A program made the translations under genes and the position numbers. Under the pieces are notes generated by a model. That model was not told where the DNA came from and made no database searches. It saw only the letters and a list, made by a program, of their open reading frames with translations. A stretch of DNA of 64,000 nucleotides. Origin: a virus. The DNA is taken from IMG/VR virus record IMGVR_UViG_3300037452_000118, positions 32,001 through 96,000 of that record. The stretch is one strand, 5' to 3'. Shown piece by piece: positions 1,053 through 29,250 of this stretch; position 1 is the stretch's first letter; each line of letters opens with the position of its first letter.

Positions 1053-2167
1053 ACCTGCACCTCGCGTCAGACCTGCTCCTGGACAAGCATCTTCCGGAGC
1101 CGGAGCCTGTCCCCGACAAGGCGGCCTACCTCCGCGAGCGCGAGGCCTGCCTGGCGCTGTCGCCGGCGGCGCGCGAGAACTGGGAGCGCTACGAGCGCTC
1201 GACGAGGCGCGAGGCGGAGCTGGACTACCTGCCGGTCCGGCTCGACGTCGAGAACGTCAGCCGCTGCAATTTTCGTTGCACCATGTGCCAGGTCAGCGAC
1301 TGGCCGAAGGGCCAGCGCGCCGCCGACATGAGCCTCGACGACTTCAAGCGGCTGCTCGACGAGCAGGTCGGAGTCGTAGAGCTGAAAATCCAGGGCTTCG
1401 GCGAGCCGACGATGGGCGCCCACTATTTTGAAATGATCCAATACGCGAGGGCGCGGCGGATATGGGTGCGCACCATCACCAACGCCTCGCGGCTGCATTT
1501 GAGAAACACGTTTCAAAAGTTGGTCGATACCGACGTGAACGAAATCCAAATATCAATAGACGGCGCAACGAAGGAAGTCTTCGAGGGCATCCGGCGCGGC
1601 TCGGTGTTCGAGCAGGTCGTGAAGAATTGCGCGCTGATCAATGGCTATGCAAAAGCCCAGGGCAAGCTACGAACCAAAATGTGGACTGTCGTGCAACAAA
1701 CCAACGCGCACCAGCTCGACGACCTGGTCGACCTCGCCTACGACGCCGGCTTTGCGCATTTGGTTTTTTCATTTGAATTGATTGATTTTGGGCAGCCGAA
1801 ATGGAAGGAGACGAACGATGCCGCCTCGGTCGCGGATCGGATAAGCCTCGCGGAATGTTGGCGGCTGCACCATCGCGCCAAGGCGCTCGGCGTCCGATTG
1901 GGTTTTTGGTTTGCCAACGAACGCTATAGCTATGAGGCGGGCAACCCGGAAAAGCTATGCTCGTGGCCGTTTCAGTCTGCCTACATCTCGTCCGACATGA
2001 AAATCGTACCGTGCTGTATAATTGGAAACCCCGAAGTTAGCAATTTCGGCGATGCCCGCAAGCTCACTGAACTTTGGAATGGCCCCGCCATCAAGGCTTT
2101 CCGTGAGGGTCATTTGACGGGGTGTGTTCCGGATATTTGCAGGTCCTGTTATAAGGGGAATCGCTGA
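1049..2167 (+). CDS. Radical SAM protein with C-terminal SPASM/twitch domain
   Basis: CNFRCTMC (CxxxCxxC), GFGEP, ISIDG motifs; C-terminal CSWPF..VPCC..CRSC. Confidence 0.92.
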   Translation: MNLHLASDLLLDKHLPEPEPVPDKAAYLREREACLALSPAARENWERYERSTRREAELDYLPVRLDVENVSRCNFRCTMCQVSDWPKGQRAADMSLDDFKRLLDEQVGVVELKIQGFGEPTMGAHYFEMIQYARARRIWVRTITNASRLHLRNTFQKLVDTDVNEIQISIDGATKEVFEGIRRGSVFEQVVKNCALINGYAKAQGKLRTKMWTVVQQTNAHQLDDLVDLAYDAGFAHLVFSFELIDFGQPKWKETNDAASVADRISLAECWRLHHRAKALGVRLGFWFANERYSYEAGNPEKLCSWPFQSAYISSDMKIVPCCIIGNPEVSNFGDARKLTELWNGPAIKAFREGHLTGCVPDICRSCYKGNR

Positions 2168-2177
2168 ATCAACTCTA

Positions 2178-2216
2178 TTGACTTATAATTATCGCGTGGT
2201 GTAGGAATGGTTCCTA
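2178..2216 (+). promoter_or_regulatory. Putative sigma70-type promoter with palindromic operator
   Basis: TTGACT at 2178; AT-rich spacer; inverted repeat TAGGAA-tgg-TTCCTA (2202-2216) over the -10 region, ending at the RHH start codon. Confidence 0.5.
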
Positions 2217-2368
2217 TGAGAACCACGCACAAGCAGACGATTACCTTCACGAAACCAGAGATCGACTACCTGCGGATCGAGGCTAAACGCCTCGGCATAT
2301 CCGTGGCCGATCTTGTGCGGCGGATCATAGATCAGCACCAAGAGAGCCAAAGGAAAGCAGCAAAATGA
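2216..2368 (+). CDS. Ribbon-helix-helix (CopG-like) regulator, 50 aa
   Basis: Hand translation MRTTHKQTITFTKPEIDYLRIEAKRLGISVADLVRRIIDQH...; beta-strand then GISVADLVRR helix pattern; ATGA overlap with the next gene. Absent from the ORF track because it is short. Confidence 0.8.
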   Translation: MRTTHKQTITFTKPEIDYLRIEAKRLGISVADLVRRIIDQHQESQRKAAK

Positions 2369-3177
2369 ACAAACCAATCCAAGCCGAAGAGGCCGTTACC
2401 GTTGCCGAGATACAGATGACCGAGATGAGCTTCAACATCGTCGGGACATCCCCTCTCGTGATCCATGCTATGAGCGCGAAGAGCAAAGGCTCTCTGCTCT
2501 TTCCATCTCCGCGCAAGAATGCGACGGAGCGAGCGACGACGATGAAGCACGAACCATATGAGGAGTTTCTCGGCGCTTGCTATCGCTTCAGGGACGCCGA
2601 CAAATCGCCGACCCGGCTCTATATGCCGGCCGGAGCTTTTCATGCCGCGATGGCCAACTCCGCGATTGATATGGTCGGCGCTAAGAAAGCGCAGATCGGG
2701 CGCTTGACTACGGTACCCGGCGGCAAGATTCCAATCTTCGGTGTGCCGCAACTCTGGATGACCACCGTCAGGTCGAGCGACATGGCGCGAACACCGGACA
2801 TTCGCACGCTGCCGATCCTGCCGTCATGGTGCGCCACGATCACGGTGCAGTTCGTCGGTAGCCTGATCAAGCAGCAGTCGATCGCCAATCTGCTCGCTGC
2901 CGCTGGCGTCATCATTGGTATCGGTGACGGGCGCCCAGAGAAGGGCAAATTGTCGATGGGCCAGTTTCGCCTTTGCTCCGACGATGATCTAGAGTTTTTG
3001 CGGATCGTGAAGCAAGGCGTAACCGCGCAGGATAAGGCGCTTGCCGACCCGGCGACTTTCGACGAGGAAACTGCAGAACTTTGGGATTGGTTCACAAAAG
3101 AAAAAACCAAACGGGCGGCGGCTCCGGCGTCAATACCGAAGCGCCCCCCCCAAGGCAGAGCATGCAGCGCGAGCTAA
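2365..3177 (+). CDS. Stand-alone Cas7/RAMP-like protein, candidate effector of the adjacent pentamer arrays
   Basis: RAMP-like motifs: N-terminal strand IVGTSPLVIH, LYMPAGAFHAAM (like the YIPGSSLKGA motif), W-x-x-T-I-T-V strand and Gly-rich loop GIGDGRPEKGK..GQF. No cas1/2/3/10 in the window. Confidence 0.75.
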   Translation: MNKPIQAEEAVTVAEIQMTEMSFNIVGTSPLVIHAMSAKSKGSLLFPSPRKNATERATTMKHEPYEEFLGACYRFRDADKSPTRLYMPAGAFHAAMANSAIDMVGAKKAQIGRLTTVPGGKIPIFGVPQLWMTTVRSSDMARTPDIRTLPILPSWCATITVQFVGSLIKQQSIANLLAAAGVIIGIGDGRPEKGKLSMGQFRLCSDDDLEFLRIVKQGVTAQDKALADPATFDEETAELWDWFTKEKTKRAAAPASIPKRPPQGRACSAS

Positions 3178-3188
3178 CGGCTCTTGAA

Positions 3189-4060
3189 ATCCAGTCCAGT
3201 TGGGACACGATAGCCCAGTCATATCTCGATGTGACGAGATACGACTAGATGCGACCGGGACCAACAAGACTTGATCGGTCAAGATGCGAACAGTCTTGAT
3301 GCGACGGGACCGGATATGATCCGATGAGCCGTGACTGGACCAACGCGACTAGACCGGACGCGACGCGATACGATCTGGCTAGATACGATGAGACCAATGC
3401 GATGCGTTTGGCCGAGTTCGGACGCGACATGATCCGCCGTGATGCGCTTTGCCAAGACGCGACCAACATGATGAGCCGTGACCAGCCACGATCAGACCCG
3501 ACGGGCCGGAGCGCGACTTGCTCAGACCAACAAGACCTGCCGAGCCGCGATCGGCCGCGCTGCGATACGATTGGACAGGACGTGTTTTGTCCAACATGAC
3601 CCGACTAGCGATGACGAGCGGTGCCGGGCCATGACGAGACCAACAAGCCAAGTCTGGACGTGCTCGGACGGAATATGATCGGACTGGACAAGACCAACAC
3701 GACAAGACTGGAGACGACGTGCGGAGCCGGGACCGGCCGCGACAACGCTGGACCTGACCAACGGGCCTAGAAGGGACCGGATTAGCAATGCCGTGGCGAG
3801 ACGGGACCGACAAGTCACGATCAGCCAAGTCCCGAGGAGCCAACGCGAGATCGGACATGCCAAGACCAACGAGGTTTGCTCAGATGAGCGAAGCCGCGAC
3901 GTGATCGGCCAAGACGTGACCAACGTGACTGGCTATGCCGAGATTGGCCCGGACCAGATGCCTTGGGACGAGACTTGAAATGCCGAGACCAACGAGCCGC
4001 GATGTGACCTGACGCGCTATGCCGCGATCAGTAGCGATGAGATGGGATAAGTTGCCAACC
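3189..4060 (+). repeat. Pentamer-periodic array 1, (G-led triplet + NN)n units separated by GACCAAC; candidate guide-RNA array
   Basis: Delimiters at 3259, 3338, 3392, 3461, 3525, 3589, 3638, 3692, 3756, 3805, 3864, 3918, 3987 (variants GACCAAT, GTCCAAC, GACCGAC). Spacings 79,54,69,64,64,49,54,64,49,59,54,69 are all 5n+4. Triplets are mostly GAC/GAT/GCC/GTC. Confidence 0.93.
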
Positions 4061-4076
4061 AAAGAGGAGGTTAAAA

Positions 4077-4571
4077 ATGTCGACCATGAAAATCCGCGCT
4101 GCGGCGATCAAAGCGATCGAGGATGAAGCCGGCAGAGTGACGGCGGAAGCGCTGGTATTGGCGGCGCGCGATCAAACCCATCCGCTGCACAAGGAGTTTC
4201 CCTGGGACGACAAAAAGGCGGCGCACCAGCATCGCCTCGATGTCGCCCGCCGTATAATCGCCAGCGTAAGGGTAACCATCACAACTACAACCAAGAAGGT
4301 AACCTGCGTTGGCTATGTCAGGGATCCTGAAGCCGGGCTACGACAGGGCTACGTCAGCACCGTCAAGCTGCGTACTGAGGCCGATGCTGCGCGGGAAGCC
4401 CTCGGCGCGGAGATCGCCAGGGTACAGAGCATTTTGGAAAGAGCGAAGGAACTCGCTGCAGGCCTCGAGCTTGACGAGGATTTTCAATTGTCTCTCGCCG
4501 GCGCCTTGGATTTTTCCAGCCGGATGCGAAAAGGACTCGGTTTTCCAGGAGATGGAAGAGCCTTGCAATAA
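4077..4571 (+). CDS. Phage hypothetical protein embedded between the two arrays (partner of the RAMP gene)
   Basis: Strong SD AGAGGAGG; motif TAEALVLAAR..HPLHKEFPWDD..AA..HRL..ARRII. Confidence 0.8.
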   Translation: MSTMKIRAAAIKAIEDEAGRVTAEALVLAARDQTHPLHKEFPWDDKKAAHQHRLDVARRIIASVRVTITTTTKKVTCVGYVRDPEAGLRQGYVSTVKLRTEADAAREALGAEIARVQSILERAKELAAGLELDEDFQLSLAGALDFSSRMRKGLGFPGDGRALQ

Positions 4572-4577
4572 AGCCTA

Positions 4578-4711
4578 AACGTACTGTGCCGTGTCACGTT
4601 ACGACATGATCGGACACGATCTGACGAGACCAACGCGACCTGACTCGTCTTGTTGCGGTGAGGCATGACATGATGCGATTTGTCGCGATCCGACTAGCCG
4701 CAGCAAGATGA
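4578..4711 (+). repeat. Pentamer-periodic array 2 (two units)
   Basis: aac gt/act gt/gcc gt/gtc ac/gtt ac/gac at/gat cg/gac ac/gat ct/gac ga, GACCAAC at 4628, then 15 further pentamers. Confidence 0.88.
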
Positions 4712-4725
4712 TCAAAGGGAAGCTA

Positions 4726-5727
4726 ATGATACTCTCTGTCGGGGAATACGATGCCCTTGAGCAGGAAGCTCGCTGCGGTCTTTCTTTTTGCGAGCTCATG
4801 GCCTTCGCGCCGCGCACTTTCGACATGCTCGGCTTCCCGCATCGCGTCGAGGATGAGCGGGAGCTCGTCCGCTACGCCGATTGGAATCGGGACACCGGAA
4901 ATCAAGAATACTTTCGGCCCGGCCATTTCTTCGGCGGCCCGGCCGTGCAGACCGACTTCACCGCCGATGAGGTCGAGATGATGAATCGCGTCCGCGACCA
5001 GGCCGTCGCGGCGACCACCAAGCTCGGCCGGCCGGTGCGGCCGCTGTGCAGTCCCTTCGCGCAGCTCGGCCTGTTTCGCATCTTGGCCGCCATCGGATTG
5101 CCTGGGCTCCGCGTCTTCGAGGTCGGCCCCGGTACCGCCTATCTCGGCGCCATGCTCATCAACGAAGGCGCGAGCTATTATTCTTTCACCGACAACGCCC
5201 AGGCGCTTTTCCTTTGGCAATGTCGCTTGATGGCCGAGGTCGGGTATCAACCGACGTCGCGCGCTGGGCTTCCGTGGTGGGACTTCGCCCGCGGCGTCAA
5301 CCTTCTTCCGGTCGATGTCGTGGTCTCCAACACCAACCTCGGCGAGATGACCGGCGACGCGCTCAAGATCACGGCGCACCGCGCGCGGCAGATGCTGGAG
5401 AGATCGCCGCTTGGTCTCTTCCTGTTCGTCAACGTCGGGGCGCCGATGTACAATTCGGAGGAGGGCGTCGACCGCGAGCTGCGCCGTGCCGGCTTCAGCC
5501 TCGTCGTCAACCGCTTTTTCCGCGCCTACCGGGCGCCCAACTCCGAGCCGCTCCCGGAGGCGGCGCTGGCCTTGGAGTTCGGCATGCCGCTCTATAATCC
5601 AAGCGGCAGGCCTGGCACGGTGTCCGGTGGCGAGGCCGTGTACATCCCCGACGACCAGCGCCCGCTCGACCTCGACGTTACGGAGCTGCTGGAGGGGTGG
5701 CGCCCGCCGGTGAGGAGCAAGCCATGA
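4726..5727 (+). CDS. SAM-dependent methyltransferase (putative sugar O-methyltransferase-like)
   Basis: Motif I VFEVGPGTAYLG, acidic FTD at strand 2, later DVVVSNTNLGEM. ATG 4726 preferred because 4708 lies inside array 2. Confidence 0.75.
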   Translation: MILSVGEYDALEQEARCGLSFCELMAFAPRTFDMLGFPHRVEDERELVRYADWNRDTGNQEYFRPGHFFGGPAVQTDFTADEVEMMNRVRDQAVAATTKLGRPVRPLCSPFAQLGLFRILAAIGLPGLRVFEVGPGTAYLGAMLINEGASYYSFTDNAQALFLWQCRLMAEVGYQPTSRAGLPWWDFARGVNLLPVDVVVSNTNLGEMTGDALKITAHRARQMLERSPLGLFLFVNVGAPMYNSEEGVDRELRRAGFSLVVNRFFRAYRAPNSEPLPEAALALEFGMPLYNPSGRPGTVSGGEAVYIPDDQRPLDLDVTELLEGWRPPVRSKP

Positions 5728-6647
5728 AGATCGAGGTCGTCGTCGCGGCGTGGGGACACTGGGCGCAGCGCTGGCGCAACCTCAACTGCGCCGTCGTGCG
5801 GGCCGAGGCCGACGACGTCGGCGGCACCTTGGTCGTCTACGCCGACGACGACGGCCGCGAGCGGCTGGCGGGGGAATGGATCGACGAGTTCAGGCCGCTG
5901 CCGGAGCCGGTGAGCTGGTTCGACCAGGCCGACGGCGCGCACGCCGACGCGATCGACCGGGCCCTGGCCGGCGGCTACGCCGTGGCGCCGCTGTGCGCGT
6001 CGCTCCGCCTCGGCAGGGGGACGCTCGCCGCCGCCAAGCGCCGGCTCGACGCCGGCTACCGGGCCTGCATGGCGCTCTGCGTCCCGGCCGGGGTGCCCGA
6101 CAAGGTCGAGACCGCCGCGGCGATGTCGGCCAAGCTCAAGCACGCCGGGTTCGGCTGGTGGGAGGGCAGGACGAGGACGACCCACCCCGGCCACTATGCC
6201 TGGCGCTCGGCCAACGGCGCCGTCCTGGTGCGGCCGATCTACCACCACCCCGTCCTCATCAGGCCGACGCGCGCCCACGCTCCGCGCCGCGCCGCCGACC
6301 ACTTCATGACCGAGGGCTACCTCGACGACGTCTCGCAGGTCGCGCAGCTCGACCCCCTCGACGGCTGCATCAGCGGCCTGCCGGCCCACGACGGCACCGG
6401 CCCTCCGCCGGGCCCGGCCAGGCCCCCGGAGAACCCGGCGCTGGCGGAGCCCGCCGGCATCGTGGGCTGGATGCTGTCCGGGGTCGGCGTCGCCGGCGGC
6501 GTCAACGTGATGCCCTGGAACCTGCACTACATGGCCCACCGCTTCTGGTGTGGCGAGCCCGGCGCCGACAGGCTAGAAGTTGAGATGGAATCGGACCGCG
6601 CCGTCGCCGAGATCAGGCGGATTTATTTTGAAAGGGTAGGAAAGTGA
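5724..6647 (+). CDS. Hypothetical protein, probable paralogue of 132..1052
   Basis: SD GAGGAG; N-terminus IEVVVAAWG and similar length and layout to the first ORF. Confidence 0.5.
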   Translation: MKIEVVVAAWGHWAQRWRNLNCAVVRAEADDVGGTLVVYADDDGRERLAGEWIDEFRPLPEPVSWFDQADGAHADAIDRALAGGYAVAPLCASLRLGRGTLAAAKRRLDAGYRACMALCVPAGVPDKVETAAAMSAKLKHAGFGWWEGRTRTTHPGHYAWRSANGAVLVRPIYHHPVLIRPTRAHAPRRAADHFMTEGYLDDVSQVAQLDPLDGCISGLPAHDGTGPPPGPARPPENPALAEPAGIVGWMLSGVGVAGGVNVMPWNLHYMAHRFWCGEPGADRLEVEMESDRAVAEIRRIYFERVGK

Positions 6648-7486: not shown

Positions 7487-7770
7487 AAATGATGAAAACT
7501 ATTTCGGTCCCGGCGACAACGCGCGAAGCGCTTGATTACATCAAATGCGAGCTTTGCCCTACGCAAACACGCTCCGATGGCTATTGGCCTACGAACATAG
7601 GCTACAGAGTTGATGACGTTGAGGTTGAGTACGTCACGGGGGACAGCTACCCGGAAGGTGGCTCTACAAAAACCGTCATTCTCGACATCTGCCCCAAATG
7701 CTTCGAAGAAAAGTTGGTCCCGTGGTTTAGGTCTCAAGGTGGTGTACCTCGTGTGGAAGAAAGGGACTGA
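7483..7770 (+). CDS. Zn-ribbon-like hypothetical protein
   Basis: CELC ... DICPKC; ATGA overlap. Confidence 0.65.
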   Translation: MKMMKTISVPATTREALDYIKCELCPTQTRSDGYWPTNIGYRVDDVEVEYVTGDSYPEGGSTKTVILDICPKCFEEKLVPWFRSQGGVPRVEERD

Positions 7771-7948
7771 CGATATGCCGGACGTTCCCAAAGTCCTCGA
7801 CACCATTGCCGACCGGGTCCTCCGATACCGGCCCAAGCCGAAGTCAAAGCCCGCTCGCCGCCGTAAGCGCCGGGCTGCCAAGCTGGCGTCAAAATGAGCG
7901 GAAGAATCAGAAGCGGGTTGATCTATATGCAGCATTGGAGATGATATA

Positions 7949-8917
7949 ATGCAGTGGTGTTGGAATTGTTTTTCGCATAATCCTACGGGCATCCGCTCTC
8001 TCGAGGACATCATCGAGATCGTCTCCGGCCAGCTCATCGCGCTGGGCCACACCGCGGCGTGGGACCGGACCAACGAGCACATGGTCGCGCGGGACGCCGG
8101 CATCAACATCCTCGTCGAGGGCTTCACGGAGCACCACGTCGGCATCGTCAAGCAGATGCACGAGGCCGGCGCGCGCTTCATCGTCCTCGCCACCGAGGAG
8201 CCGACCGACAAGGGCTTCAACCACGGCACGCAGAAGGAGATGGTGGAGAGGCAGCAGGTGTTCCCGCTGATCGCCCCGTACATCGAGGGCATCATCCACC
8301 TCGTCCCCGGCGACCACGTCACGCGCTGGTACTCGCAGTTCGCGCCGTCGGCCTACACCGAGCTAGGCTGGTCGCCGAAGATCATGCGGCAGAACGCGCC
8401 GATCGTCGTGAAGAACAAGGACGGCTCGCAGCGCGTCATCCCGGAGCCGGACTACGAGTTCGGCTTCTACGGCTCGCTGACCGATCGGCGGCACAAGCTG
8501 CTGAAGAAGCTGGCCAAGAGGGTCACCAACAACCCGAAGGCCATCGTGACGATGGTCGACTTCGGCACCCGGGGCAACCGCGACAACGAGATGCGCCGCG
8601 CCAAGGTCATCGTGCAGCTCCGCAAGTTCGACGAGATGGGGCTGGTGTCGTCGAGCCGCTGCAACACCGCGCTGGCCATCGGGCGGCCGGTGATCGCGGA
8701 GCCGCACGAATTGGCGAAACCGTGGGACGAAGTGATCCGCTTCTCGAAGACGCAGGAGTCCTTCATCGACGAGGCGATGGCGATGCGCGCGATGTGGCGC
8801 GGCGTCTACCAGCACCAGGTGGCCAAGTTCAAGGAGAAGTTCCCGCCGGAGGCCTGCATCGGTCGCGCGCTGGAGATCCTCGGCATCGGGCAGGAGCCGC
8901 GGAGGCTGGCGTCGTGA
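7949..8917 (+). CDS. Putative GT-B glycosyltransferase
   Basis: YEFGFYGSLTDRR and AKVIVQLR...SSSRCNTALAIGRPVIAE resemble the C-terminal nucleotide-sugar-binding lobe of GT-B enzymes. Confidence 0.65.
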   Translation: MQWCWNCFSHNPTGIRSLEDIIEIVSGQLIALGHTAAWDRTNEHMVARDAGINILVEGFTEHHVGIVKQMHEAGARFIVLATEEPTDKGFNHGTQKEMVERQQVFPLIAPYIEGIIHLVPGDHVTRWYSQFAPSAYTELGWSPKIMRQNAPIVVKNKDGSQRVIPEPDYEFGFYGSLTDRRHKLLKKLAKRVTNNPKAIVTMVDFGTRGNRDNEMRRAKVIVQLRKFDEMGLVSSSRCNTALAIGRPVIAEPHELAKPWDEVIRFSKTQESFIDEAMAMRAMWRGVYQHQVAKFKEKFPPEACIGRALEILGIGQEPRRLAS

Positions 8918-9296: not shown

Positions 9297-10094
9297 ATGC
9301 CGAGGCCGCCTAAACGCGACAAAGCCTTCAAGACTGAGGTTGAATTATGCGGTGCATTTTTGGCCGCTGTTGATAATACTCAATGGACCGCATTCGCGGA
9401 AACGGCGAATTGGGACATACTTTTAGTCCGCAAGATCGACGGCTTCCAGATCGGCATCCAGGCGAAGCTGAAGCTCAACGTCGACGTTGTAAACCAGGTG
9501 ATCGAGGGCGACGATGGCTGGTTCAACACCGCCCACGCCCACCCCGACTGCTGCGCGATCCTCGTCCCCGAGGGCGACGACGGCAAGCTCGGGAAAGTGT
9601 GCGACTGCCTCGGCATCACGGTGATCAGGATGCGGTCGGCGAGCGCGGAGGGCTGGCGCGAGAGCGACTTCAAGCACAACGCCCGCTTCACGCCTGACCT
9701 GCCGCAGCCGGGGAAGTCTTGGAGTCAGGAAGCCTGGCACGACCTCGCCACGGTGAAGCGGCACAAGCTGCCGGAATACGTGCCGGACGTCGCGGCCGGC
9801 GCGCCCTCCCCGCTCCAGCTCACCGACTGGAAGATCAAGGCGATCAAGCTCGCCGTCACGCTGGAAATGAGAAAGCATCTCACCCGCCGCGACTTCGCCC
9901 ACCACGGCGTCGACCACCGCCGCTGGGTAACGCAGGGCTGGCTGAAGGTAGTCGACGGCCGCTACGTCAAGGACGCCTTCCCGAACTTCAAGAAAATGCA
10001 CCCGGTCAATTACAAGCAAATCAAAAAGGACGCGCCGAAATGGCTGCCGAAGACTCTGCTGGAGCCGGTGGCAACCCAGGCGGCGATGCTGTGA
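9297..10094 (+). CDS. Hypothetical protein, possible PD-(D/E)XK-like fold
   Basis: E...WDILLV...IGIQAK pattern; strong coding bias. Confidence 0.5.
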   Translation: MPRPPKRDKAFKTEVELCGAFLAAVDNTQWTAFAETANWDILLVRKIDGFQIGIQAKLKLNVDVVNQVIEGDDGWFNTAHAHPDCCAILVPEGDDGKLGKVCDCLGITVIRMRSASAEGWRESDFKHNARFTPDLPQPGKSWSQEAWHDLATVKRHKLPEYVPDVAAGAPSPLQLTDWKIKAIKLAVTLEMRKHLTRRDFAHHGVDHRRWVTQGWLKVVDGRYVKDAFPNFKKMHPVNYKQIKKDAPKWLPKTLLEPVATQAAML

Positions 10095-10930
10095 GCCTGA
10101 TCCGGGTTTTCCCCAGGCGCACGCGGGCGACGCCCGACGATGCCCTCGCGCGCTTCGGGCCGCCCGACCTCCTCGATGAGGCCGACGAGGTGCACGTCTC
10201 GGTCACCTTTACCTACGACAAGGCCAAGGCGGAGCAGCTCGCGGAGCAATGGCGCCACGTCGCGCCGGTCAAGATCGGCGGCGTGGCCTACGGCGACACC
10301 AGCCTGGAGTTCATCCCCGGCCGCTATCTGAGGCCCGGCTACACGATCACCTCGCGCGGCTGCCCGCGCCGCTGCTGGTTCTGCAGCGTCCCAAAGAAGT
10401 GGCCGACCGTGAACCTGCTTCCGATCTACGACGGCTGGAACGTCCTCGACGACAACCTGCTGGCCTGCGACCGCGGCCACTTCGAGAGCGTCATCGCCAT
10501 GCTCCGGCGCCAGAAACTGCCGGAGAACGGCCGCGTCGAGTTCAGCGGCGGGCTCGAGGCGCTGTCGCTGCAGGACTGGCACGTCGACATGCTGGCCAGC
10601 CTGAAGCCGCGCCCGAACTGCTTCTTCGCCTACGACCCCGGCGACGCCTTCGAGACGCTGGAGAGCGCCGCGCGCCGGATGCTCGCCGCTGGCTTCACGG
10701 CGGCGTCGCACCGGCTGCGGACCTTCGTCCTCGTCGGCTATCCCAAGGACACGCTGGCGCTCGCCGAGGCGAGGCTGCGGCAGATGACTTCCATCGGCTT
10801 TACCCCGTTCGCGATGCTGTGGAGGCCGGAGACGCCATCGCAGCAGAGATATGCGCCCGGACCGGAGTGGAAGCGGTTCCAAAAAATGTGGGCGCGACCG
10901 GCTATCATTCACGCCCAGGCGGCGGCATAG
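10091..10930 (+). CDS. Radical SAM protein
   Basis: TSRGCPRRCWFC, LDDNLL; GTG start at 10091 overlaps the previous stop. Confidence 0.85.
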   Translation: MSLIRVFPRRTRATPDDALARFGPPDLLDEADEVHVSVTFTYDKAKAEQLAEQWRHVAPVKIGGVAYGDTSLEFIPGRYLRPGYTITSRGCPRRCWFCSVPKKWPTVNLLPIYDGWNVLDDNLLACDRGHFESVIAMLRRQKLPENGRVEFSGGLEALSLQDWHVDMLASLKPRPNCFFAYDPGDAFETLESAARRMLAAGFTAASHRLRTFVLVGYPKDTLALAEARLRQMTSIGFTPFAMLWRPETPSQQRYAPGPEWKRFQKMWARPAIIHAQAAA

Positions 10931-28260: not shown

Positions 28261-28515
28261 TCAATCCAACCCGGCGACGTGCTCGCCGATCTCGCGCAGC
28301 TCGGCCAGGACGGCCTCGAGCTTCTGCAGGCGCGCCCAATGCTCGGTCGTCGCGGCCGTCCCGGCGCCGGGGACGAGGTAGTAGTCCCGCAGGTTCGGCC
28401 CGTTCTTCTGGCAGACCTCGATGGCGTGCCGCACCGCGTTGACGCAGTCGATGTAGCCCTCGAGCAGCGCCTCGCGCGAGGTGCCGTTGAGGTGGACCGT
28501 CGGGAAGGTCGTCAT
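28261..28515 (-). CDS. Hypothetical protein
   Basis: PTVHLNGTSREALLEGY..PNLRDYY. Confidence 0.65.
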   Translation of the reverse strand: MTTFPTVHLNGTSREALLEGYIDCVNAVRHAIEVCQKNGPNLRDYYLVPGAGTAATTEHWARLQKLEAVLAELREIGEHVAGLD

Positions 28516-28733
28516 AGCCCGATCCTCATCATGAGCTCTTCGGCGCCGTAGACGGCGTTCTCGCCGCAGCCTTCGCACTTGTACTTGCGGGCGTCGGGCT
28601 CGCAGCAGCCGTTCTCCAGCCCACAGGCGAGACAGATGCCGGGGTTGTCGAGCGAGGTCATCTGCCGCTCGCAGGCCTCCATGATCACCTCCTCGGTGAC
28701 CTTGGGGTTCACGTTTATTCCGTCGATCTTCAT
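28512..28733 (-). CDS. Small Zn-finger protein
   Basis: GICLACG..CEPDARKYKCEGCG..VYGAEE. Confidence 0.7.
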   Translation of the reverse strand: MKIDGINVNPKVTEEVIMEACERQMTSLDNPGICLACGLENGCCEPDARKYKCEGCGENAVYGAEELMMRIGL

Positions 28734-28915
28734 TTTCTCAACCCCGCTTGCTGGATGATGGACAGCCCGATCAGCATCGCCTCGTCGGCCGCCTTGTGCT
28801 CCCCGCGCTGCGTCTTGCGCTGGAACGAGGACTCGACGGCGTGGACGACGTGAATCCAGTCGGCGATGGGTAGCGCGACGGCGACTATCGGCGATTTGAC
28901 CTTGGTGTCGCTCAC
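28730..28915 (-). CDS. Hypothetical protein
   Basis: GTG start overlapping the upstream stop. Confidence 0.4.
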   Translation of the reverse strand: MSDTKVKSPIVAVALPIADWIHVVHAVESSFQRKTQRGEHKAADEAMLIGLSIIQQAGLRK

Positions 28916-29250
28916 TGCTCGCCCCCGATGAACTTTTGCCGCGCGATCTCCCATGCCTCGTTCCAGAGGGCAGTATCGGCGTCTGATCCGAAGTCCAATG
29001 GGCGGCCGACGACATCCGTGAAGGCCTCGTCCATCGCCATGTTCGCGTCGCAGAAATCGTGCGAGGCGCAGCAGCCCTCGGCATAGGCTGAGGTTTGGTT
29101 GCGCTTCCGCATCTCGGCGAACTCGCCGGGGGAAAGCCACCGCCGCAGCACCGCCGCGAACTTCTCGGCGATCTGCGCCGGGCGCTCGTCGCCCTCGGCA
29201 TAGGCGACGTAGTTCTCTGCGGCGCTTTCAAAGCCTTTGATGATTGCCAT
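28912..29250 (-). CDS. Hypothetical protein
   Basis: CASHDFCDANMAMDEAF; SD GGAG. Confidence 0.65.
   Translation of the reverse strand: MAIIKGFESAAENYVAYAEGDERPAQIAEKFAAVLRRWLSPGEFAEMRKRNQTSAYAEGCCASHDFCDANMAMDEAFTDVVGRPLDFGSDADTALWNEAWEIARQKFIGGEQ

Follow-up and report, generated by a model that had tools for sequence, protein, structure and literature searches.

Whether a compact phage locus that combines a Cas7-like gene with arrays of five-nucleotide repeats represents a new kind of RNA-guided system, a variant of a published one, or something other than a guide system is the question raised by positions 2178-4711 of a 64,000-nucleotide stretch of soil phage DNA. This stretch, referred to as the window, corresponds to bases 32001-96000 of the single 128,813-base contig held as IMG/VR record IMGVR_UViG_3300037452_000118. 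Five elements follow one another on the plus strand of the locus: an open reading frame (ORF) of 53 amino acids (aa), an ORF of 270 aa, a non-coding stretch of 880 nucleotides (nt), an ORF of 164 aa, and a second non-coding stretch of 140 nt. The locus is very probably a phage-encoded VIPR (Viral Interference Programmable Repeat) system with a G-[A/C/U]-Y scaffold triplet and a Vipr protein carrying L149 and G189. A first-pass annotation, made from the letters alone, had pointed to a resemblance to VIPR and had listed the locus as a candidate non-CRISPR RNA-guided system. The resemblance was borne out, since VIPR is in print (PMC13142463) and the family profile of the 270-aa protein matches a Vipr entry of the PDB. 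The locus does not represent a novel kind, since VIPR was published in 2026 and 'GAC/NN or CAC/NN' is listed among 21 non-canonical VIPR-like clusters beside Vipr-like folds in a preprint of October 2026 (10.64898/2026.10.21.760802); the motif itself is therefore already in print.

VIPR comprises the minimal RAMP protein Vipr, a vap gene, and guide RNAs (vrRNAs) of 9-16 YNNGG repeats; double-stranded DNA (dsDNA) is recognised by the NN pairs with one skipped base, the hosts of the system are mostly viral, and seven types use 'GGY/NN or a related consensus' (PMC13142463). In the SUSP1 complex, as resolved by cryo-electron microscopy, one protomer is bound per repeat, H17 and D177 bind G1, R138 of the thumb and W178 of the G-loop hold G2, R179 holds Y3 together with neighbouring residues, and R138 is essential by alanine scan (10.64898/2026.04.26.720927). 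The legend to fig. S18 of the VIPR discovery preprint describes 'staggered vrRNA arrays' in which vrRNAs overlap by 1 nt, the end of one being the start of the next. The October preprint is a bulk survey by entropy periodicity that covers 21 clusters and 6,318 sequences, the motifs being said to repeat 10 times (10.64898/2026.10.21.760802).

The features of the locus, by position in the window, are as follows.

2207-2368, plus strand: small ORF of 53 aa, a possible ribbon-helix-helix regulator (ORF list; family matches below threshold)
2365-3177, plus strand: vipr, coding for a minimal, Cas7-like RAMP of 270 aa (model, Foldseek and family profile), of the subclade with H34, L149, P150 and G189
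3178-3258, plus strand: leader of array 1; it closes with about six pentamers that are G-led and have no junction before them
3259-4060, plus strand: vrRNA array 1, 13 staggered units (period-5 scan, junction spacing)
3918-3986, plus strand: unit 12 in array 1; candidate guide directed at ParB_N + N6_N4 DNA methylase genes in phages or prophages
4077-4571, plus strand: vap-like accessory gene of 164 aa, mostly helical, its family so far virus-only (tblastn, phrog_15946)
4603-4711, plus strand: vrRNA array 2, consisting of 6 pentamers, GACCAAC at 4628, and 16 pentamers (period-5 z 7.1)

Pentamer arrays and the RAMP protein beside them

Period scores were tested against 300 dinucleotide-preserving shuffles. 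In 3189-4060, where the first-pass annotation had predicted an autocorrelation peak at 5, base identity was 0.41, 0.40, and 0.40 at lags 5, 10, and 15 and 0.20-0.24 at all other lags up to 15; in 4572-4711 it was 0.46 at lag 5, and the four flanking genes gave period 3 alone. The period-5 signal reached z = 15.1 in array 1 and z = 7.1 in array 2, a score of at least 0.15 was attained by these two arrays alone in the whole 128,813-base genome, and one marginal off-target window (0.10) was found in the 64 kb. The pentamer arrays are thus real, and they are not repeat-spacer arrays of the CRISPR kind, as had also been stated: period 5 was the only structure found in them, the neighbours are a radical-SAM gene and unassigned ORFs, and the period of a CRISPR repeat plus spacer is about 60-79 nt (10.64898/2026.10.21.760802).

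The units of array 1 are delimited by the heptamer GACCAAC, which was found 14 times in 3178-4076 when up to one mismatch was allowed. One of these, GACCAGC at 3480, was dropped because it lies inside a unit (if kept, two spacings become 19 and 45). The 13 remaining junctions, of which three are degenerate (GACCAAT at 3392, GTCCAAC at 3589, and GACCGAC at 3805), give 12 spacings of 79, 54, 69, 64, 64, 49, 54, 64, 49, 59, 54, and 69 nt, every one equal to 4 modulo 5, in agreement with the 5n+4 rule noticed at first reading. Each unit of array 1 consists of AAC.NN, 8-14 pentamers of the form G[A/C/T][C/T].NN, and a closing GAC.CA that shares 1 nt with the unit after it; the earlier figure of 8-15 pentamers per unit was close, the count of G-led pentamers after the delimiter being 8-14. 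Both arrays together hold 13 + 2 units, with 10-16 pentamers each when the opening AAC.NN and the closing GAC.CA are counted. GACCAAC had been taken for a delimiter and may mark processing sites, but a better reading is that a closing pentamer GAC.CA and an opening pentamer AAC.NN overlap there by 1 nt; because one base is common to the two, each junction shifts the G register by -1. A tally of 140 pentamers, including about four trailing non-array pentamers at the 3' end, had G at position 1 in 132 and C or T at position 3 in 125, and position 2 was A in 82, C in 39, T in 12, and G in 7. A GAY-dominated triplet had been suggested to be a VIPR variant; the published VIPR definition admits a consensus related to GGY/NN, and GAC/NN is a motif of the October preprint. 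Of the 16 dinucleotides, 15 occur at the NN positions. The folding energy of 3259-3530 as RNA was no better than that of shuffles (z 0.24). No Rfam family was found in 2000-5000 at E <= 1, hence no hammerhead ribozyme such as those that separate vrRNAs in ribozyme-interspersed VIPR arrays, and there is no room for ribozymes between units, where GACCAAC is the sole separator.

The 270-aa product matched no Pfam or NCBIfam family and was assigned to phrog_4652 (function unknown) with an E-value of 3.9e-16; 606 relatives at E <= 1e-3 were obtained among 8000 candidates scored from a large protein collection, and a tblastn search of a phage collection with the protein itself gave no match. An AlphaFold2 model built on 44 relatives had a pLDDT of 86.2 and a pTM of 0.81, with a beta-hairpin at residues 145-164 and the loop GIGDGRPEKG at 185-194. 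Foldseek returned 46 PDB matches at E <= 0.001 (best 3.0e-5, probability about 1.00, TM 0.35-0.5), and the top matches were all Cas7-type RAMPs of type III systems, namely Csm3, Cmr4, and Cas7-11. Among predicted viral structures in BFVD the best match had E 8e-11, and another was annotated 'Cas system-associated RAMP superfamily protein'. The prediction that the gene codes for a protein with a Cas7/Csm3-type RAMP fold is thus supported by the modelled structure. A profile of 44 homologues compared with the PDB matched 36pp, 'SUSP1 Vipr protein', at E 9.2e-5, the sole match below E 0.8; a search with the single window sequence reached 36pp at E 0.17. Alignment of the family profile by hhalign with the product of the 195-aa SUSP1 vipr gene (28474-29061, minus strand) gave a probability of 91.9% and E 6.8e-7.

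Loci around homologous genes were compared in 80 viral and 31 genomic sequences (111 in total). A period-5 region lies beside the gene in 106 of them at a score of at least 0.10 and in 97 at a score of at least 0.15, so the expectation of similar arrays beside homologues held, and the five loci that lack an array all end within about 490 nt after vipr. As a positive control the first 50 kb of SUSP1 were scanned, and only the intergenic arrays flanking vipr were flagged. The triplets in most relatives are GGC or GGT. In 88 non-duplicate loci the register shift between units was +4 (equivalent to -1) in 574 of 867 cases, followed by 3 (166 cases), 1 (69), and 2 (58); staggered units are therefore a trait of the family, and the 5n+4 spacing in the window and the +4 shift in the relatives amount to the same 1-nt overlap as in the legend to fig. 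S18. We accordingly take the architecture in the window to be the published staggered array type. Two distant relatives with 25-26% identity, L110 (an archaeal metagenome-assembled genome) and L111 (a Gemmatimonadaceae one), also have period-5 regions, at 7501-8475 and 5126-5525; the unit in L110 is a different, A-rich one ('AGGAAAG' 14 times) and lies 3 kb from the gene.

A survey of the partner gene was made over 114 loci. A homologue of the 164-aa ORF, 150-170 aa long, stands beside vipr and on its strand in 86 of these (tblastn, E <= 1e-3), downstream of vipr in nearly all, and the vipr-vap pair is therefore a conserved module. The partner matches phrog_15946 at E 4.8e-16, its AlphaFold2 model (pLDDT 83.3) is mostly helical, and its neighbours in the atlas are virus-only hypothetical proteins; no assignment to any of vap1-6 was obtained. 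Neither Pfam nor NCBIfam yielded a family, Foldseek against the PDB found no match at E <= 0.001, the VIA wide search gave Z of at most 4.5 and on a helical hairpin only, and the partner profile matched only designed helical bundles in the PDB. Any role assigned to the vap-like partner in the system is a guess. The 53-aa ORF, whose stop overlaps the vipr start (ATGA), had been called a ribbon-helix-helix regulator. It does have weak matches of that kind below the family cut-offs (Pfam NikA-like, E 0.0034, 17.9 bits against a cut-off of 27; NCBIfam BrnA antitoxin, E 0.0012, 18.9 bits against 60), but in the 114 related loci tblastn at E <= 1e-3 found no counterpart, so this part of the proposed operon is not shared by the relatives.

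The locus resembles the type II system of SUSP1 in being phage-borne, in its minimal RAMP with thumb and G-loop, in the accessory gene adjoining vipr, in the combination of a fixed triplet with a variable NN, in the number of repeats per predicted RNA (about 10-16), and in having arrays beside both genes. It differs in that its units abut through a 7-nt junction, whereas each repeat tract of the type II system is followed by an invariant structured 3' tail (pseudoknot) of about 50 nt, and long tails are seen between the tracts of the SUSP1 arrays; in its 13 + 2 units as against 4 vrRNAs; in the length of the protein (270 aa as against 195 aa), the similarity being detectable by profile only; and in an accessory protein unrelated to the SUSP1 gene next to vipr, which we presume to be vap1. 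With the arrays of the October preprint it shares period 5, a fixed triplet other than GGY, and a position beside a Vipr-like fold; in the accessible part of that preprint no statement was found on junctions or stagger, on residues that track the motif, or on targets. In type III CRISPR systems, Csm3 and Cmr4 RAMPs polymerise along the guide, and a thumb flips bases out at a fixed period. These proteins are the best solved-structure fold matches of the window protein (E 3e-5 to 1e-3); unlike type III systems, the locus has no repeat-spacer array and no other cas genes, its period is 5 and not 6, its guide would be made of non-contiguous dinucleotides, and it is viral and not cellular.

The scaffold triplet and its predicted protein contacts

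Residues aligned with the SUSP1 contacts were compared with the repeat triplet in 96 loci that had an aligned Vipr and a parsed array, 66 clear GGY loci serving as the comparison. By alignment, the residues for G1 and Y3 appear to be retained: H17, D177, and R179 of SUSP1 align with H34, D188, and R190 of the window protein, and neither D188 nor R190 varies in any of the 66 GGY loci. The pairing of H34 with H17 comes from a weakly aligned N-terminal segment, and most GGY relatives have Asn there. The residues for G2 appear to be changed, R138 and W178 of SUSP1 aligning with L149 and G189, and the scaffold here is G-[A/C/U]-Y where that of SUSP1 is GGY. The residue pattern agrees with the repeat that is present.

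Both a second base other than G and the GNCCAAC junction recur in the closest relatives of the locus, which are L001-L004 (62% identity; four copies of one sequence), L005 (57%), and L112-L114 (62-76%; metagenome contigs). GAC triplets are common to L112-L114; L001, L113, and L114 use mostly GAC, and L005, with about 24 units, mostly GCC and GTC. In the column of R138, Leu occurs in the window, L001-L004, and L005, and the remaining 90 of the 96 loci have Arg. Among arrays parsed on the plus strand, only those of the six loci with Leu149 show G at position 2 in 8% of pentamers or fewer. Three further candidates for non-GGY arrays (L037, L069, and L104) were rejected; they had been parsed on the wrong strand and are GGC arrays, which look low in G because GGC reads as GCC in reverse. 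The column of W178 holds Gly in the window; for the 66 GGY loci the counts are W 27, F 24, and G 11. Alignment A1 contains 44 family members, of which the 37 with 52% identity or more to the window protein have H34/L149/P150 and the other seven, with 51% or less, have N/R/A. The alignments are suggestive of a loss of both G2 contacts in exactly the clade whose repeats have lost G2. Sequences in the L001-L004 array (about 4763-5090) are low in diversity, with GAC.GT recurrent and 'ACGTGAC' present 11 times, and in this respect the arrays of the window differ.

Loci with R149 and Gly in the W178 column (L010, L022, L023, L012, L006, L007, and L029) tend to mix GAC with GGC. A stands at position 2 in 0.18-0.48 of their pentamers, most loci of the W or F type having less; parser noise enters these fractions. 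There are hints here that the aromatic residue of the G-loop may tune the tolerance for A at position 2.

It is a tentative and rather doubtful proposal that in the H34/L149/G189 clade the G2 pocket has been dismantled, so that G1 and Y3 alone would anchor the pentamer, position 2 would be free, and ends would be set by the -1 shift, giving a 'relaxed-scaffold' VIPR in which G is perhaps avoided at position 2 to keep the register unambiguous. If this were true, the middle base could carry extra function or information, and vrRNA ends would be set purely by the -1 shift at GAC.CA/AAC.NN, without a tail, a ribozyme, or a dedicated nuclease. A matched pair is at hand, consisting of R149 relatives with GGY and the L149/G189 clade with G-[A/C/U]-Y, the residues aligned with the G1 and Y3 contacts being the same in both.

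The proposed dinucleotide code and a candidate target

Composition of the NN positions was scored with codon models derived from 59 long genes of this phage, using 149 NN pairs. The best model was codon positions 1-2 in the sense direction (-571.9 bits), ahead of the background (-595.7 bits), the next-best frame, which was the antisense model (-613.5 bits), and four other frame models (-616 to -696 bits). N4 and N5 mirror codon positions 1 and 2, with G at 0.42 versus 0.40 and A at 0.32 versus 0.26. Together with the conserved residues for G1 and Y3, this composition lends indirect support to the idea, put forward at first reading, that one subunit would cover each pentamer, with the triplet as scaffold and the NN as information.

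Exact seeds from six units (1, 3, 4, 8, 9, and 12) were searched in a collection of viral contigs. Units 1 and 3 (11 NN each) and units 8 and 9 (9 NN each) had no matches in this collection. The seed of unit 4 had two matches to one distinct sequence, which extend to 19/24 outside any ORF and were taken as chance. The seed of unit 12 was found in two distinct sequences in three viral contigs. Over its 13 NN, 23 of 26 bases matched in frame, with the skipped base on the wobble position of the codon; this corresponds to 88%, and the cut-off for target matching in the VIPR discovery preprint is 80%. Read as codon positions 1-2, the NN of unit 12 give V-C-M-D-W-R-H-A-G-D/E-F/L-I/M-D/E, and the matched peptide, x-C-M-D-W-R-H-A-G-D/E-L-x-x, belongs to a ParB_N + N6_N4_Mtase DNA methylase (Pfam E 7.7e-34) whose gene lies immediately upstream of terminase genes. 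The motif CMDWRHAG occurs in 76 of 80 homologous methylase loci and is the most conserved motif of the methylase. At C, M/I, D, W, R, H, and E/D the guide NN are those most common in the family (0.72-1.0 in 69 distinct other sequences), and the four NN values of unit 12 outside the seed are all present in the methylase family at 0.10-0.25.

When 401 genomes sampled evenly from one bacterial class were searched with the pattern of unit 12, the sole site with at most three mismatches lay in this same motif (V-C-M-D-W-R-H-A-G-E-L-L-A), and a control with the reversed pattern gave no matches in the same genomes; five genomes that carry relatives had no match to the pattern. Unit 12 probably targets a methylase of this family in a competing phage or prophage absent from the collections. 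Such a target fits the published picture, in which phages silence competing elements at positions from which synonymous changes offer no escape. The phage itself has nothing closely homologous to the methylase (best 23% identity). In the phage genome no self-targets were found at skips 0-3, the best scores being those of shuffled guides except for unit 1 (22/30 as against a shuffle maximum of 21), and when 806 distinct guides from all loci, those of the window left out, were compared with this phage, matches at skip 1 did not exceed those at skips 0, 2, and 3. In L118 the candidate target gene lies, at positions 2500-5724, in a module of a ParB_N ORF, an N6_N4 methylase, a DUF5681 ORF, and a large terminase; with a resolvase gene nearby and a glycosyl-hydrolase fragment upstream, this contig therefore looks like the end of a prophage in a bacterial genome.

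Proposed mechanism, alternatives, and genome setting

In the VIPR system proposed for the window, both arrays would be transcribed on the plus strand into vrRNAs of 10-16 pentamers. Vipr would coat each vrRNA with one protomer per pentamer, as in the SUSP1 structure, so that G-x-Y is buried and NN presented, position 2 presumably being no longer read by the protein. By homology with SUSP1, the NN pairs would bind dsDNA with every third target base skipped, and guides would therefore read codon positions 1-2. At each junction the -1 register shift, together with an AAC pentamer that lacks G, may break the protein filament, and the ends of the vrRNAs would accordingly lie there. As in SUSP1, the guides would silence genes of competing mobile elements at the level of transcription, possibly helped by the vap-like partner. 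VIPR is a guide-RNA logic distinct from CRISPR, and natural variation of its scaffold shows which contacts fix the code; the locus also points to a dense array format without tails, with 13 guides in 800 nt.

Several observations weigh against this interpretation. The canonical GGY triplet is absent, with G at position 2 in 7 of 140 pentamers; similarity to SUSP1 Vipr by hhalign is local, covering 51 columns from thumb to G-loop; the covariation of residues and repeat lies within one clade and therefore counts as one evolutionary event, suggestive but not statistical. The partner has no recognisable DNA-binding fold by Foldseek or the VIA search and is unlike the SUSP1 gene that we take to be vap1 (hhalign probability 0.1%). 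The target evidence comes from one of six seed searches, its best match is imperfect at 23/26, about one chance match is expected per 18-base seed by a rough estimate from the size of the collection, unit 4 did give a chance-like match, and among the window guides unit 12 was the only one to match the 80 methylase loci. In 1900-5000 no sigma-70-like promoter was found and terminator-like sites were at chance level, and the runs that contain the stretch are four soil-metagenome DNA runs, with no RNA run among them.

These points bear unequally on three other explanations. A VIPR-like ribonucleoprotein could be directed at RNA, namely transcripts of competitors, as type III Cas7 backbones are, and not at dsDNA; this would suit the nearest solved folds, which are the RNA-targeting subunits Csm3 and Cmr4, and a partner in which no DNA-binding or nuclease domain was recognised. 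It nevertheless appears very unlikely, given that NN composition fits sense coding DNA by 42 bits over antisense and that characterised VIPRs bind dsDNA (PMC13142463; 10.64898/2026.04.26.720927). Unit 12, moreover, has the sense of the methylase coding strand and would therefore pair with the template DNA strand and not with mRNA. Slightly more improbable still is a decayed or orphaned VIPR locus, in which the lost G2 pocket and GGY motif would signify lost function. R138, essential in SUSP1, and W178 are indeed replaced and the repeat does depart from GGY, but the L149/G189 form is common to 37 of the 44 family members sampled, at identities as low as 52%, the ORFs are intact, G1 and Y3 stay conserved along with their contact residues, large regular arrays with the same junction occur in independent contigs (about 24 units in L005), and in two soil runs the sequence recurs on contigs longer than 32 kb, without differences over the 5 kb compared.

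The least probable of the three is that the pentamers act as DNA and not as guides, for instance as iteron-like sites or a structural repeat for the ribbon-helix-helix or Vap protein. The missing promoter and RNA runs would agree with it, as would the small DNA-binding-like ORF upstream, itself weakly supported. Against it, the ribbon-helix-helix ORF is not conserved, at least 97 of 111 loci combine such arrays with a RAMP RNA-binding protein, the NN are hypervariable between relatives while the scaffold is fixed, the strand asymmetry of G1 and the pyrimidine at position 3 follows the strand of the gene, and the NN look like codon positions 1-2. A phage-encoded VIPR system therefore remains the preferred reading of the locus.

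The carrier is a phage, as befits a system found mainly in viruses and proviruses: PHROG matches in the genome include terminase, portal, head protease, major head, sheath, tape measure, and baseplate proteins, and 424 relatives were found in the viral contig collection. The start of the contig (at least 100 and about 128 bases) recurs at its end, from base 128,686, and the myovirus-like genome of about 128.7 kb is therefore probably complete, being circularly permuted or terminally redundant. Two soil runs, which may be the source of the record, yielded the contigs of more than 32 kb mentioned above, and a third yielded identical short pieces. In run X4 a low-depth contig (side 23, depth 2) links 3211 with 4617 across 16 letters of other sequence, in a repeat-like region; this joint may reflect a phage variant whose first unit differs or a misalignment of the repeat-like sequence.

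The pentamers of array 2 reach up to the ATG of the next ORF, and the locus is flanked on its two sides by the following genes.

1049-2167, upstream flank: radical-SAM/SPASM gene (Pfam 1.1e-15 and 1e-08)
4708-5727, downstream flank: ORF of 339 aa, weakly methyltransferase-like

Two radical-SAM genes (1049-2167 and 9719-10930, one with SPASM) and the methyltransferase-like ORF thus surround the VIPR locus, and these neighbours may serve the modification of nucleic acids or peptides. For the neighbouring ORFs at 102-1052, 5697-6647, and 7949-8917, no family was matched in Pfam, PHROG, or NCBIfam. Farther along the window, a single plus-strand ORF of 2407 aa at 16554-23777 matches portal and minor-head PHROGs at residues ~108-613 (E 5e-96) and contains an RNA-ligase-like stretch at 1185-1281 (E 3.5e-15), an unusually large fused head protein.

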